Made by a program: the position numbers and the translations under genes | Notes under the pieces: generated by a model | What the model was told of the DNA's origin: nothing | Seen by the model: the letters and a program-made list of their open reading frames with translations, nothing else | Databases searched by the model: none | Assembly: GCA_013239625.1 (NCBI GenBank) | Contig: MU053136.1 | Location: 18,017-82,016, forward strand | Direction of reading: 5' to 3' | DNA: 64,000 nucleotides | Origin: Lama guanicoe | Lineage: Eukaryota | Part shown: piece by piece, positions 42,801 to 48,800 of the stretch | Position numbering within the stretch: position 1 is the first letter of the stretch | How the letters are laid out: each line of letters starts with the position of its first letter

Positions 42801-45800
42801 ACTTTGCATGTGAGGAATTCCGGATGAGCTCGAGAGTTCTGAGGCTGGTCCAAAGCCAGCTTCTTGAAGGTCAGCAGTCCCCACTGACTGTGGACCTACT
42901 GGGTACACACTGAGTCTCCAGCAAATGCAGGGACAAAGGCCCCCTGCTCCCAGTGGCTGTCTGCGTGCCCGGCACGCGGGATGCCTGGGACGGAGGCAGG
43001 GTTGGGTGAGTGCCAGGGGCAGGAGAGCTGACTCCTGGAGGGAGTTCGTCTTAAGGCCATGGTGTCATTAATGCTTCTGCTGCCTTGTGCCCCTCTCCCT
43101 GTCACCCGCAATGTTCAGACAATTTATAGAACAAAACAAGCCCTTCCGTGCTGCAGACTTTATCACTGGCGCAGGCTCTGTCTGGAGAACTGGTCCTCTG
43201 GTGGTTGGTTCCTACTCTTAATACGTTGGCTCAAATGTCATCCCTTTGGAGCCTGCGCTGACCACTCTGTCAGAAAGCCCATCGCTGAGTCCGCTTCTGT
43301 GGCAGTGGTGACCACCATCTATATCTACTTTGCTCATTTACTGTCATCACCCACGTGGGCAGAGGCTGCATCTGTGTAATTCACAGCTGTCTCCCCAGTA
43401 CCCAGCACATAGCAGGTGCTCAGTAAATAACCGAATGGTGTTCCCTCAGCTATAAGAAGGGGGGTGTGGCCTCTGGGATGAAGCACGTGGAGACCAACAC
43501 TTACGACGTGAAGCGGCTGCTACACGTGAAAGGGAAGAGAAACATCAGGGCCACCGAGGTAAGTCCTGACCCTGTCTGTCCTGGGCCCAGGGCCTCTCCA
43601 CCTAGCACCTCAGAACTCCTCCTAGTAACGTCTCCGTCTCCTCTGCAGGTGGAAATGAGCTGGGACAGTTTTAACCGAGGTGACGTCTTCTTGCTGGACC
43701 TCGGGAAGGTCATCATCCAGTGGAACGGCCCAGAGAGCAACAGTGGGGAGCGCCTGAAGGTGCAGCTCACTCCTCCTCCCGGCTCCCCTCTCTCCCTCGG
43801 TGCCCGTTCCTTCTTCCTTCCTCGCCGGCTCTTCCCTGCCCTTCAAGCCGGGACCCCTGCCTCTGAGTAGCATCTGCTCCAGAGACAAGCCAAGTGCGCC
43901 AGTCTGGGACTCAGATCAGGTAACTCCTGTGTCTGGGATCCAGGCTGCTCCTCCAGAAGCTGAGTGCTTCCTTGGTCTTCTTTACAGGCTATGCTTCTGG
44001 CAAAGGATATTCGGGACAGGGAGCGAGGAGGCCGAGCTGAGATAGGAGTGATCGAAGGAGACAAGGAGGCAGCCAGCCCGGAGCTGATGAAGGTCCTTCA
44101 GGATACCCTTGGCCAACGCTCCGTTATCAAGCCTGCCGTCCCCGACGAGATCATCGATCAGCAGCAGAAATCAAACATCACATTGTATCAGTGAGTAGCT
44201 TCTAGCTGCTGGCTAGAAGCTGGAGTAGGGGGATGGGGTCCCCCAGAAACCAGGCACTTCTACTGGGCTCATTTGGGGTGCAGGTGCCTGGCTTCTTTCA
44301 GTCTTTTTAAAACGCAGCTTCTGCAAGGAGCTCAGTGTTCCCCACTCAAGGAGGCAGCTACCATCTATTCTTGTTAGCAACTCTTCCTGGTCTCTGGACC
44401 TTCCTTTACTTGGGTCTCTACGTGCCCAGGGATATGGATGGGATAATGTTCGGGAGAGAGAGACACAAAAATCTCCTCCAGAGAACGGAGTCCATCACAT
44501 TTCTGTCTGCATTCAAGCCATGCCCGTCGTAAGAGGTCAAGCTCTACCCTGGCACGCCATACAAAGACAAAGCTAGGGAAACACGCAGCTGACAATGAGC
44601 AGCTTTGTAGAAGAGCTGAGGTAAGCCCGGTGATTCACGTCTCAGGCTAACCTCTCCCCTCTCCAGTGTCTCGGACTCAGCCGGGCAGCTGGCGGCCACC
44701 GAGGTAGCAGCGAGGCCTCTGGTGCAGGACTTACTGAACCACGACGTAAGTAGAGCTTGGGTGGGCGGGGCTTGGTGCAGCCGGACCTCGCCCCAGAGGC
44801 GGGCCTTCGGGAAGGGCCTTCCTTATGGTCTTGGACAGCTAACCACTTCTCTCCCTGACTGACTGCTTCAGGACTGCTACATCCTGGACCAAAGTGGAAC
44901 CAAGATCTATGTGTGGAAAGGAAGAGGAGCCTCGCAGGCTGAGAAACAGACAGCCATGTCTAAAGCCCTGGTAGGAGCTACGGATGTGTAGTATTGTCCC
45001 CAAAATTGTCAGTAACACTTCACACGTGCTCAGAGGGCCACAAGGCACTAGTGTGTATAACATCGCAGTGACATATGTGGACTTCGAAGTCAGACAGACA
45101 AGCTGGGATTCAAGTCCAGGTTTGATGCCATCTCCTGGGGCTCTTGTGAGGATCAAATAACACTTGCAAAGTGCTCTGCACAGTGCCTGGCACACACATC
45201 TGCTCGATAAAGGTGGCTTTACTACTATTGAAGGGAATAGCCCACGTCAAGGTCACTGGTCCTGTCCTCAAGGAGCTTATGCTGTTGTGCAAACCCAGGC
45301 AGATGAACAAGCAGGATGCATGTGCAAAGCAAAAATTAGGCAAATGAGGGTGATACAAAGTCCATAGGGAACAGGATTGATGAAGGAACATAGTATAGAG
45401 GATCTTGCAAAAAAAAAGAAAATCAATAACAATCATGACAGGACAACAAAGAGATGCCAAAATGTTCTGCTCAGTCCCTTCCTTGAGCAGGTAACTTGAT
45501 CCCTGGACAGAGGTGAGTCAGGATTTGGCTCTGACTCCTAGAAGGGAGCAATCCTACCAGCTGGCTTCAAAGGGGTGAGTCAGCAGCCAAGCAAAGAACC
45601 CAGTGCGTTCCCTGACTGACCTGCCTCTCGGCGGTGGGGGGGGGGGTGTCCACAGAACTTCATCAAGATGAAGGGCTACCCTAGCAGCACCAACGTGGAG
45701 ACCGTCAACGATGGTGCCGAGTCAGCCATGTTCAAGCAGCTGACTGACTGACCTGCCTCTCGGCGGTGGGGGGGGGGTGTCCACAGAACTTCATCAAGAT

Positions 45801-48800
45801 GAAGGGCTACCCTAGCAGCACCAACGTGGAGACCGTCAACGATGGTGCCGAGTCAGCCATGTTCAAGCAGCTGTTCCAGAAGTGGTCGGTGAAGGACCAG
45901 ACCGTGGGCCTGGGGAAAACGTTTAGCATCGGTAAAATCGGTACAGTTGCCCCTAGATCGCCTTCTCACTGCTGGGACTCTCCAGAAAGGCAGGCATACA
46001 TGCTTTTCACTCACTTGGCTTCTCCTAACCCCTTCTCTGCAGCTAAGGTTTTCCAGGATAAATTTGATGTGACCCTGCTGCACAGCAAACCAGAGGTAGC
46101 GGCCCAGGAAAGAATGGTCGACGATGGCCATGGAAAAGTTGAGGTAAGCCCAGTGATTCACGTCTCAGGGCAGGCAGGGGGCACTGGCCCTCCTGGCTGC
46201 TCCACCACAGAGGAGGCGGCAGGTGATTCTGTGTCTGCTTTGTCTTCCTTTTCACCCCTGGCACCTCATTCTCTAGGAGTCTGCAGGGTTTCCCCACAAT
46301 TCTTCAGGGAAGTGAAAGGTAGGTACCCAGTGTGCTATCAGTGACTCACCTGGCAGATATATTCAAATAGTCTCTGAGCCATGATGGGGATGCACCTGAC
46401 CAGGGACAATCCAGTGCTCAGGATTCAAATCACGCAAATGTGATAAGCCCTCACCACTGGGAAAACAGCACCAGAGCAGGGGAGGGTACTCTGAGTGTAT
46501 GTTAGCACCTCACCCACCTGGATTCTCTGCTAATCATGGCCCAGTTCCCTTCAGGTGCTTCTCTCAGCTCTTGGAAATTGTGTCTCCTTCTATGCTCAGG
46601 TGTGGAGGATTGAAAACCTGGAGCTGGTCCCCGTGGAGTGCAAGTGGCACGGCTTCTTTTATGGGGGAGACTGCTATCTGGTTCTCTACACGTACGAGAT
46701 GAATGGGAAGCCACATCACATCTTGTATATCTGGCAGGTAGGCCTGGGGCAGGCTCTCAGCTTTGGGTCCTGGCGCTTCCTCTGGCCACGGAGCTGGGGC
46801 CAGGGATAGCAGGGACCCATGGCACCCCTCTCACCACTGCAGGGCCGCCACGCCTCACAGGACGAGCTGGCAGCCTCGGCATACCAGGCGGTGGAGGTGG
46901 ATCGGCAGTTTGACGGGGCGCCTGTACAGGTTCGGGTTACCATGGGGAAGGAGCCACGTCACTTCATGGCCATCTTCAAAGGAAAGCTGGTTATCTTTGA
47001 GGTGAGAGCCCTCAGCTAAAATTACAGTAGGGGGCTACAGGAGAGGAGAGGAGGGGTGGGAAGCGGGGCTGGGGTAGACGCAGATAAGAAGGGGAATCGC
47101 TCTAAGACACTGAAGTGAATCCCAACTGCCTAGGGCTTCAAGTCCAAACTACTGCCTAATTCGTGTTCAAGGTCTTTTATAATCTGATCCATATTACCTG
47201 TCCAGGGGCATTCCCCTCAGTTCCCTAACCTACACTCACTGCAGTCAGGTGGGTTTCCTCATCAGACCTCACATTTGCCATTTCGTTCCCTGTCCACTGC
47301 CCCGACCAAATGTGCCCCTCCAAATTCGAGTCCCACTTCTCCCAGGAAGCCCTGGCGAAGCACTACCAGGGATGTATGATGTAACGTGTTTGATATACAC
47401 AAGTCTGTGGTCAAGTTCTAGCCTTGTCATTTACCAGCCAGCTTTCTAAGCCTCAGTTTCTCTACCTATACTGTGGGACAATAATACCTACTTCACAGAA
47501 TAATTGTGAGGGTCCATAGAATGATGTAGGTAAGGCGCCAGCACCGAGGTCTCAGAATGAAAGCTAATATTGGCACCAGAACTCCAGCTCAGCCCGGCCT
47601 CTCCCAAGTAGCCCAGAAGCTCCTCCAGGGCAAAGACGGTGTCAGGCACATCCCTGTTCCCCACAAGGGCTAGCCCAGTGCTCCGCCCACACGGTGCACC
47701 TTAGATCCAGACTCTGCTTTTCTCCCTCTCTCTAGGGCGGGACTTCCAGGAAGGGAAGTGCCGAGCCTGATCCTCCAGCGAGGCTCTTCCAGATTCACGG
47801 ATATGACAAATCTAACACCAAAGCGGTGGAGGTTCCAGCCTTCACCTCCTCCCTAAACTCCAACGATGTCTTTCTGCTGCGGACCCAGACAGAGCACTAC
47901 CTGTGGTACGGCAAGGTAGGACAGTGGGGCCCAGCGGTCACACCAGCCCCTCAGAGCCCAGCCCTGAGCCCACCCTCCTGTCAGCAAAGGCAATGGAACT
48001 AAGGAGGAAGCTGGAGCAGTCCTCAAAAAGAGCAGCTGTTCCCCAAGGGCCTTCAGAGGGACCGACAGCGCTCCCCACGATCAGGCCTCCACCTAGAAAC
48101 TCACTAACAGCACTGCTCACACCCAGGAAACACTCCATAAACTTCTAAATGGATGGAGGCTGGACAAATCCATCTTTCCACACCAGTTTGGTGGATTGCA
48201 ATAGGATAGGCATTAACAGTGAATAGAAACACTACAAATGTGATTTTTGCCAATTCAAAGTGCATCTGCATTAAAAAGCACTAAAATTGTTTTTACAAAA
48301 GAGGTTTGAACAGGAAAAGATACTCAACATCATTAGTCATTAGGGAAATGCAAATGAAAACCACAATGAGATACCACTACACACCTATTAGAATGACTAA
48401 ACGAAAACTGATCATGTCAAGTGAGGGCGACAGGAGGAACAACGGGAATTCTCACACACTGCTGGTGGGAAAGCAAGTGTGGCCTTTGGGAAACGATTTG
48501 ACAGTTTCTTACATGACATACACTTGCCGCATGACCCAGCAACCCCACTCCTGGCTATTTACCCATGTGAAATCAAAAACTATCTTCACACAAAACTCTG
48601 TACATGAATGTTCATACCACCTTTATTTGTAATCACGAAAAACCGGAAGCAGCTCACTGGGAGAATGGGAAATCAGACAGTGGCATACCCAGGCAGTGGG
48701 ATACGACCCAGCCTCACAGAGGAACAAGCTGGGGATGCCCGCGACTGCAAGGGTGAATCTCAGATGCATTATGTTCAGGGAAAGAAGCCAGACTCAAAGG

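Follow-up and report, generated by a model that had tools for sequence, protein, structure and literature searches.

A doubled start of AVIL exon 9 at a G run in a Lama guanicoe assembly, with assembly error favoured over a real mutation

The window, which is the whole 64,000-nucleotide stretch of Lama guanicoe DNA that was analysed, contains the AVIL gene and exons 2-6 of TSFM. AVIL is modelled with 19 coding exons, and its 816-aa product is identical to the Vicugna pacos advillin XP_072828606.1 (RefSeq) at 812/816 residues (4 differences) and differs from five Camelus proteins at 11-15 positions. Camel and rat homologues carry six Gelsolin stretches and a VHP domain in Pfam, and on sequence comparison the gene is the advillin ortholog, with six gelsolin repeats and a villin headpiece. 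Apart from the region described here, AVIL is open across its coding exons, as are TSFM exons 2-6. The features used in the analysis are as follows.

39773..54659, + strand: AVIL (advillin) coding span, 19 coding exons, 816 aa
44872..44970, + strand: exon 8, whose donor precedes acceptor 1 by 685 nt and acceptor 2 by 816 nt (long upstream intron)
45612..45742, + strand: copy 1, 131 nt, consisting of the last 44 nt of intron 8 and the first 87 nt of AVIL exon 9
-41 and -37 relative to the copy 1 acceptor, + strand: two branch-point-like motifs
45636-45646, + strand: G11 run of copy 1
45654-45655, + strand: acceptor AG of copy 1
45656-45940, + strand: extended exon 9 (upstream acceptor), 285 nt
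45740..45751, + strand: junction micro-repeat, three CTGA units with a 3-nt CTG microhomology
45743..45743, + strand: single base outside both copies, completing the third CTGA unit
45744..45873, + strand: copy 2, 130 nt, the copy 1 unit with G10, continuing into the native remainder of exon 9
45768-45777, + strand: G10 run of copy 2
45785-45786, + strand: acceptor AG of copy 2
45787..45940, + strand: normal exon 9, 154 nt
45941..46042, + strand: intron 9, 102 nt, short, in frame and without a stop

The start of exon 9 is therefore present twice, in a layout of 131 + 1 + 130 nt that is flanked 5' by native intron sequence. TRF reports positions 45612-45873 as a repeat of period 131 with 2.0 copies and 99% matches, and a self-blastn of the window aligns the pair at 99.2% identity over 131 nt. 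The match resolves into two exact blocks, one of 106 nt at offset 131 (45637-45742 = 45768-45873) and one of 34 nt at offset 132 (45612-45645 = 45744-45777), and the two copies differ solely in the G11 versus G10 run. These searches confirm the earlier note, which had described the branch point, the acceptor and 87 nt of exon 9 as doubled, with acceptors at 45655 and 45786. No other long near-identical tandem copy is found in the 64-kb window by an exact 30-mer scan; because the pair is the only one of its kind and has an E-value of 7e-60, the doubling is not due to chance.

Base 45743 belongs to neither copy, so that the junction carries three CTGA units and the upstream copy two. Only two such units would be expected from a join made by CTG microhomology alone. 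A 3-nt CTG microhomology is present, but the join is not a clean one of that type. The additional base reads equally well as one more CTGA unit or as a one-base spacer, and it also completes a third branch-point-like motif, at -44, for the downstream acceptor.

The choice posed at the outset between a very recent duplication and an artefact at the G run is correctly framed, and the present analysis leans towards the artefact. An assembly error, in the form of a false tandem duplication at the G run, is favoured over a real mutation and is the probable explanation, because the duplicated unit holds the sole G/C run of at least 8 in the 64 kb and the copies differ only there. A random segment of 100-160 nt would include that run in 0.19% of cases (200,000 draws). 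As the favoured mechanism, we infer that two overlapping pieces, either contig or consensus ends or two haplotypes, would have disagreed on the G10/G11 length and been placed in series with one spacer base between them instead of being merged. The duplicated unit probably matches about one short-read length, and base 45743 could represent a filled gap. On this reading, exon 9 would be present once and in ordinary form in the source animal, which would make advillin of full length.

Such an error has precedents in both sequencing and assembly. In Illumina data, GGG, CGG and GGC motifs precede error-prone positions, and indel rates climb about 1,000-fold with homopolymer length (PMC3334598, in part). 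False duplications, including false exon gains, are described as arising from heterozygosity or sequencing error, and the false duplicates are sometimes linked by unsupported gap-filled sequence (PMC9516828, in part). The length of the G tract also varies in another mammal, where 2/6 ORFs in one 90% cluster of read-through ORFs are one Gly shorter; G10 and G11 could therefore be two alleles. Several observations count against an artefact. The junction is not random-looking, since it has a 3-nt microhomology and the extra base falls exactly in step with the CTGA repeat, which is what a templated slip should produce. The base-level quality of the window is good, because it contains 0 N, reads through CpG islands and an A34 tract, and otherwise keeps AVIL and TSFM exons 2-6 open. 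G tracts can stall replication, and the tract as a possible stall site is counted on the same side.

These observations bear on a possible, although rather unlikely, alternative, in which a real, recent and private or rare tandem duplication was generated by microhomology-guided repair or template switching. The downstream acceptor would then be mostly used, the minority transcript would be removed by NMD, and the allele would be silent to mildly hypomorphic. The event could proceed by CTG annealing and a single slip of 4 nt; the G run would have slipped later or been misread. Junction microhomology in TMEJ/MMBIR-type events ranges from 2 to 6 nt, and the 3 nt found here fall within that range; at least 3 nt occur at 6.4% of random tandem breakpoints. 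The third CTGA unit is a period-keeping insert, and the nearby coding exons are otherwise clean. Genomes commonly carry small tandem duplications, and microhomology at the junction is frequent in the ones that arise through polymerase-theta end joining (PMC8355091, in part). Against a real event, the duplication coincides with the sole long G run and the mismatch lies exactly there, and a carrier of the exact haplotype was not seen among the sequencing runs covered. Of these, 20/24 contain part of the sequence words and 14/24 contain half or more, with a best share of 0.94; the six rows with small or zero shares were left out of the reading. These shares do not discriminate between a real event and an artefact, because the junction and G-run words make up only about 52/1,891; a single-copy allele would reach a maximum share of 0.973, from which every SNP takes a further 0.016. 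Tandem duplication as a route to intron gain was rejected as a candidate, as the unit has no AG|GT proto-splice site that would allow exact removal and none of the 5 GT dinucleotides in copy 1 lies at the acceptor position.

The protein consequences depend on which acceptor is used. In the 19-exon model, the downstream acceptor gives 816 aa and the upstream acceptor gives 344 aa, ending at an in-frame TGA (45749-45751), which reproduces the two products that the earlier note had predicted. If the duplication is real, its setting probably favours the downstream, intact acceptor, with the extra site mostly bypassed, because the exon lies between a long intron 8 (685/816 nt) and a short intron 9 (102 nt). 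This class of long upstream and short downstream introns mimics exon definition and favours the acceptor nearest the exon's donor (PMC9225289, in part). Use of the downstream site is also supported by its three branch-point-like motifs, against two in copy 1, and weakly by a more open AG in the local RNA fold (0.77 versus 0.40 unpaired, a small difference). Both acceptors are unusually G-rich, with pyrimidines at 5-6/20 positions compared with 11-19 in the other 17 AVIL acceptors.

It is improbable that the duplication is real and the upstream acceptor wins through intron proximity, on a first-come basis, such that most transcripts stop at 45749 and are degraded; a New World camelid would then carry a naturally occurring near-null allele of AVIL. 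The 44-nt context is the same at both acceptors, and the 285-nt exon that would result is of normal exon size. Copy 1 also offers no rescue donor: the best of its 5 GT sites scores 3.2 bits with a matrix trained on the same 18 real AVIL donors that score 4.1-11.5 bits, and a cryptic-donor rescue was accordingly rejected. Exon 9 skipping was likewise rejected as an escape, since it also shifts the frame and gives 322 aa. Upstream 3' splice sites are preferred when human events are taken all together, which would suit this outcome, but the preference is reported to be reduced in the long/short intron class (PMC9225289, in part), and the outcome requires a real duplication in the first place. For the same reason of intron class, the suggestion of a hypomorphic or null allele appears overstated.

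A stop that precedes a later junction by more than 50-55 nt normally triggers NMD. The product of the upstream acceptor should be an NMD target, because its stop lies 189 nt before the exon 9 donor and 10 junctions follow, as had been anticipated in outline. That a real duplication yields a stable, G1-G3-like advillin fragment of 344 aa that severs actin is barely credible. The product would include G1, G2 and nearly all of G3, and gelsolin G1-G3 severs without Ca2+ (PMC4647846 and PMC13553588, each in part). This Ca2+ independence belongs to gelsolin G1-G3, however; the corresponding half of adseverin, A1-A3, depends on Ca2+ (PMC4647846, in part). The position of the stop far upstream of 10 junctions also argues against a stable fragment, as does the loss of F343 and W346, which are kept in 235/235 homologues with the motif. 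The solved N-terminal halves 1RGI, 5A1K and 1J72 align through advillin residue 346, and no such fragment occurs among the 251 proteins examined. The product therefore ends before the F343/W346 context of G3, short of three complete gelsolin domains, and the earlier idea of a severing isoform is not sustained. AlphaFold2 applied to 38 advillins reached a mean pLDDT of 48.5, with residues 332-510 below 50, and was not used for conclusions.

The doubled exon 9 motif and the predicted truncated end were found in 0/251 proteins, a set with one Vicugna protein and no Lama protein; this is weak evidence, because annotation would settle on the downstream acceptor in any case. Neither form appears among the matches listed in the protein searches (best 120 of 409 and best 120 of 3,209) or among the members listed for the largest cluster (15/367). 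By title and the start of the abstract, the camelid assembly and structural-variant literature covered by the search, which lay mostly outside subscription papers, contains nothing on the AVIL locus, and a search for advillin with alpaca in the same kind of literature returned only an unrelated paper.

If the favoured assembly error is correct, the result is no more than a curation note: annotation of AVIL and variant calls made against the Lama guanicoe assembly could be led astray by the doubling, which shows that G runs are trouble spots. A real event would be an ordinary small duplication, adding one more case to a common class of mutations with no new mechanism. Its interest would be modest and would lie in a possible hypomorphic allele of AVIL and in a naturally occurring comparison of intron with exon definition. 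In mice, advillin acts in sensory-axon regeneration (PMC6130359), and the title of a cited reference suggests a link with human nephrotic syndrome. A long shot is that a real duplication segregates in South American camelids with the upstream acceptor taking most of the splicing, which would constitute a natural advillin knock-down allele in livestock. If true, this allele would also serve as a natural twin-acceptor experiment in vivo: a G-rich acceptor nearly devoid of a pyrimidine tract would be offered twice, and the choice would turn on a single additional branch-point motif and a single G.

Among known systems, false heterotype and homotype duplications and false exon gains (PMC9516828, in part) share with this locus adjacent, near-identical intragenic copies of single-copy sequence that differ at a heterozygous or error-prone site, here G11/G10, and both are possibly joined by unsupported sequence. 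Those cases involve whole exons or genes that are mostly separated by gaps, whereas here a 131-nt partial exon is joined through one base, with no assembly gap between the copies and no N. TMEJ-type small tandem duplications (Schimmel et al. 2021, PMC8355091, in part) resemble it in the head-to-tail copy, the junction microhomology and an additional junction change, but were induced at Cas9-nickase breaks with overhangs of about 50 nt, whereas the present 131-nt unit is known from assembly sequence alone. As in intron gain at an AGGT proto-splice site (Hellsten et al. 2011, PMC3265369, in part), an extra tandem copy can be spliced out, although here no new donor is needed or made and intron 8 would absorb the copy on use of the downstream acceptor. 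In the competition between duplicated or alternative 3' splice sites, to which the proximity rule of Reed and Maniatis applies (described by Carranza et al. 2022, PMC9225289, in part), one donor likewise faces two equal acceptors separated by over 20 nt, with intron or exon definition deciding; here one choice brings a frameshift and premature stop, and the acceptor is unusually G-rich. The human F7 intron 7 minisatellite (PMC1557585, in part) also multiplies a splice site through a repeat at an exon-intron boundary, but it is a polymorphic 37-bp VNTR acting on donors (5' splice sites), in contrast to the acceptor and single 131-nt copy found here. Finally, the 344-aa product covers the three domains homologous to gelsolin G1-G3 and adseverin A1-A3 (PDB 1RGI and 5A1K; PMC4647846, in part), but unlike these halves it is predicted to lack F343/W346, which are invariant at the end of G3, and NMD should remove it.

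The tandem duplication at the intron 8/exon 9 boundary of AVIL (advillin) is present in the sequence as written. TRF gives a period of 131, 2.0 copies and 99% matches at 45612-45873, and the copies match exactly in two blocks, one of 106 nt (offset 131) and one of 34 nt (offset 132). It is the sole long near-identical tandem copy within the 64-kb window. Both copies combine the 3' end of intron 8 with the initial 87 nt of exon 9, and are arranged as follows:

Copy 1, 45612-45742: 131 nt, with a run of 11 G (G11)
Base 45743: lies between the copies and is part of neither
Copy 2, 45744-45873: 130 nt, with a run of 10 G (G10)

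CTGA units occur three times at the junction and twice in the upstream copy. Two units as the ancestral state fits 7 of the 14 listed read-through ORFs from other mammals, a sample that is biased because three units would close the frame.

Weighed by judgement rather than computed, the duplication is somewhat more probably an assembly artefact. This reading is favoured because the two G runs of the duplication are the only G/C runs of at least 8 in the 64 kb, and because the copies differ nowhere else (G11 versus G10). A random 100-160 nt segment would contain the G run in 0.19% of draws. Passages of one study describe Illumina errors at G-rich motifs and long homopolymers (PMC3334598), and sections of another attribute false duplications, including false exon gains, to heterozygosity and sequencing error, with the duplicates sometimes joined by unsupported sequence (PMC9516828). 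Another mammal shows length variation in the G tract (two of six ORFs in one cluster are one Gly shorter), and G10 and G11 may therefore represent two alleles placed end to end.

A real duplication, weighed in the same way, is the somewhat less probable alternative, and would be a small tandem event produced by microhomology-type joining at CTG. Its breakpoints have 3 nt in common, a value reached by 6.4% of random tandem breakpoints, and the extra base 45743 continues the CTGA period, as from a primer annealed at CTG that slipped one unit. End joining is known to make tandem duplications with junction microhomology, according to portions of Schimmel et al. (PMC8355091). At least half of the sampled words were found in 14 of 24 listed sequencing runs, with a best share of 0.94. 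Since a single-copy allele would be without about 52 of 1,891 words (maximum share 0.973) and each SNP costs 0.016, these shares show only that an exact-haplotype carrier is absent among the listed runs. A doubled exon-9 motif or truncated end occurs in 0 of 251 fetched proteins, which is weak evidence against a real event because annotation would choose the downstream acceptor anyway. In favour of a real event, the window contains no N and spans both CpG islands and an A34 tract; apart from the duplication, AVIL is open, as are exons 2-6 of TSFM. The neighbouring features are:

27426-32712, + strand: exons that match a fused rodent model in its N-terminal (PF03031) part; presumably CTDSP2
55986-63750, - strand: five open exons, 307 codons without internal stop; a gene we take to be TSFM
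61360-61555, in a TSFM intron: young retro-insertion flanked by 13-bp target-site duplications at 61360-61372 and 61543-61555

The insertion, assumed here to carry a LINE-1 3' end, has the A34 tract on its 5' side, an odd position, followed by a repeat fragment 93% like 5342-5437 and an A-rich tail; it is possibly a two-template (chimeric) insertion.

The AVIL model has 19 exons with GT at every donor, and reproduces the products proposed in the earlier note: 816 aa from acceptor 45786, and 344 aa from acceptor 45655, ending at a premature TGA (45749-45751). Skipping exon 9 yields 322 aa. Against Vicugna pacos advillin XP_072828606.1 the 816-aa model has 4 differences, and against five Camelus proteins it has 11-15; judged by these alignments, it is a New World camelid advillin distinct from the V. 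pacos record. In camel and rat, the homologues carry six gelsolin repeats plus headpiece. Retention of intron 4 (43559-43648, 90 nt) or intron 9 (45941-46042, 102 nt) would keep the reading frame and add no stop, and isoforms retaining these introns are present among Camelus annotations. Intron 6 holds at 44610-44646 a 37-nt copy, 92% identical, of the donor region at the exon 10/intron 10 boundary (46133-46169; self-blastn E 3e-7). The copy stops 20 nt short of the exon 7 acceptor, puts a strong orphan donor immediately 5' of that exon and resembles an older, short templated copy made within AVIL. For the intron 10 donor-region site, read-through ORFs of other mammals contain a counterpart. 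A partial Naja naja gene model (616 aa) has the advillin block around G2-G3 twice, probably an unrelated prediction or assembly artefact.

The 344-aa product had also been proposed as a severing short isoform resembling G1-G3, the N-terminal three-domain half of gelsolin, a reading that now appears highly improbable. It replaces F343 and ends before W346, residues retained in all 235 motif-carrying proteins of the 251 fetched, and the alignment to N-terminal halves whose structures are solved (gelsolin, adseverin, CapG) runs through advillin residue 346. Ca2+-independent severing is true of gelsolin G1-G3 and not of the corresponding adseverin half A1-A3, as stated in parts of PMC4647846. Structure prediction was of too poor quality and was left unused.

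Both acceptors lie in the same weak context, with 5-6 pyrimidines in 20 positions, where the remaining 17 acceptors of AVIL have 11-19; some 40 nt upstream lie branch-point-like motifs, after which come a short stretch of pyrimidines and then the G run. In the acceptor region 45612-45655 a G tract stands in place of a pyrimidine tract, and read-through ORFs suggest a similarly G-rich acceptor in several further mammals. For human events, passages of Carranza et al. (PMC9225289) report that of two acceptors the one upstream is favoured, that this preference is reduced under exon definition, and that a long upstream with a short downstream intron mimics exon definition. AVIL belongs to this class (intron 8, 685 or 816 nt; intron 9, 102 nt), and copy 2 has three branch-point-like motifs versus two in copy 1, from which we infer that splicing of a real duplication would be mostly normal with some loss. 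In the upstream-acceptor product the stop precedes the exon 9 donor by 189 nt and 10 junctions follow it; by the 50-55 nt rule this product is a predicted substrate of nonsense-mediated decay, as the earlier note expected. None of the five GT sites in copy 1 is a plausible rescue donor. That the duplication is real, segregates and acts through its twin acceptors as an AVIL knock-down allele is rated quite unlikely. No earlier report on this AVIL locus was found in the open-access literature searched. Whether it is false or a small microhomology-type event that doubles a 3' splice site, the duplication is of a known kind.
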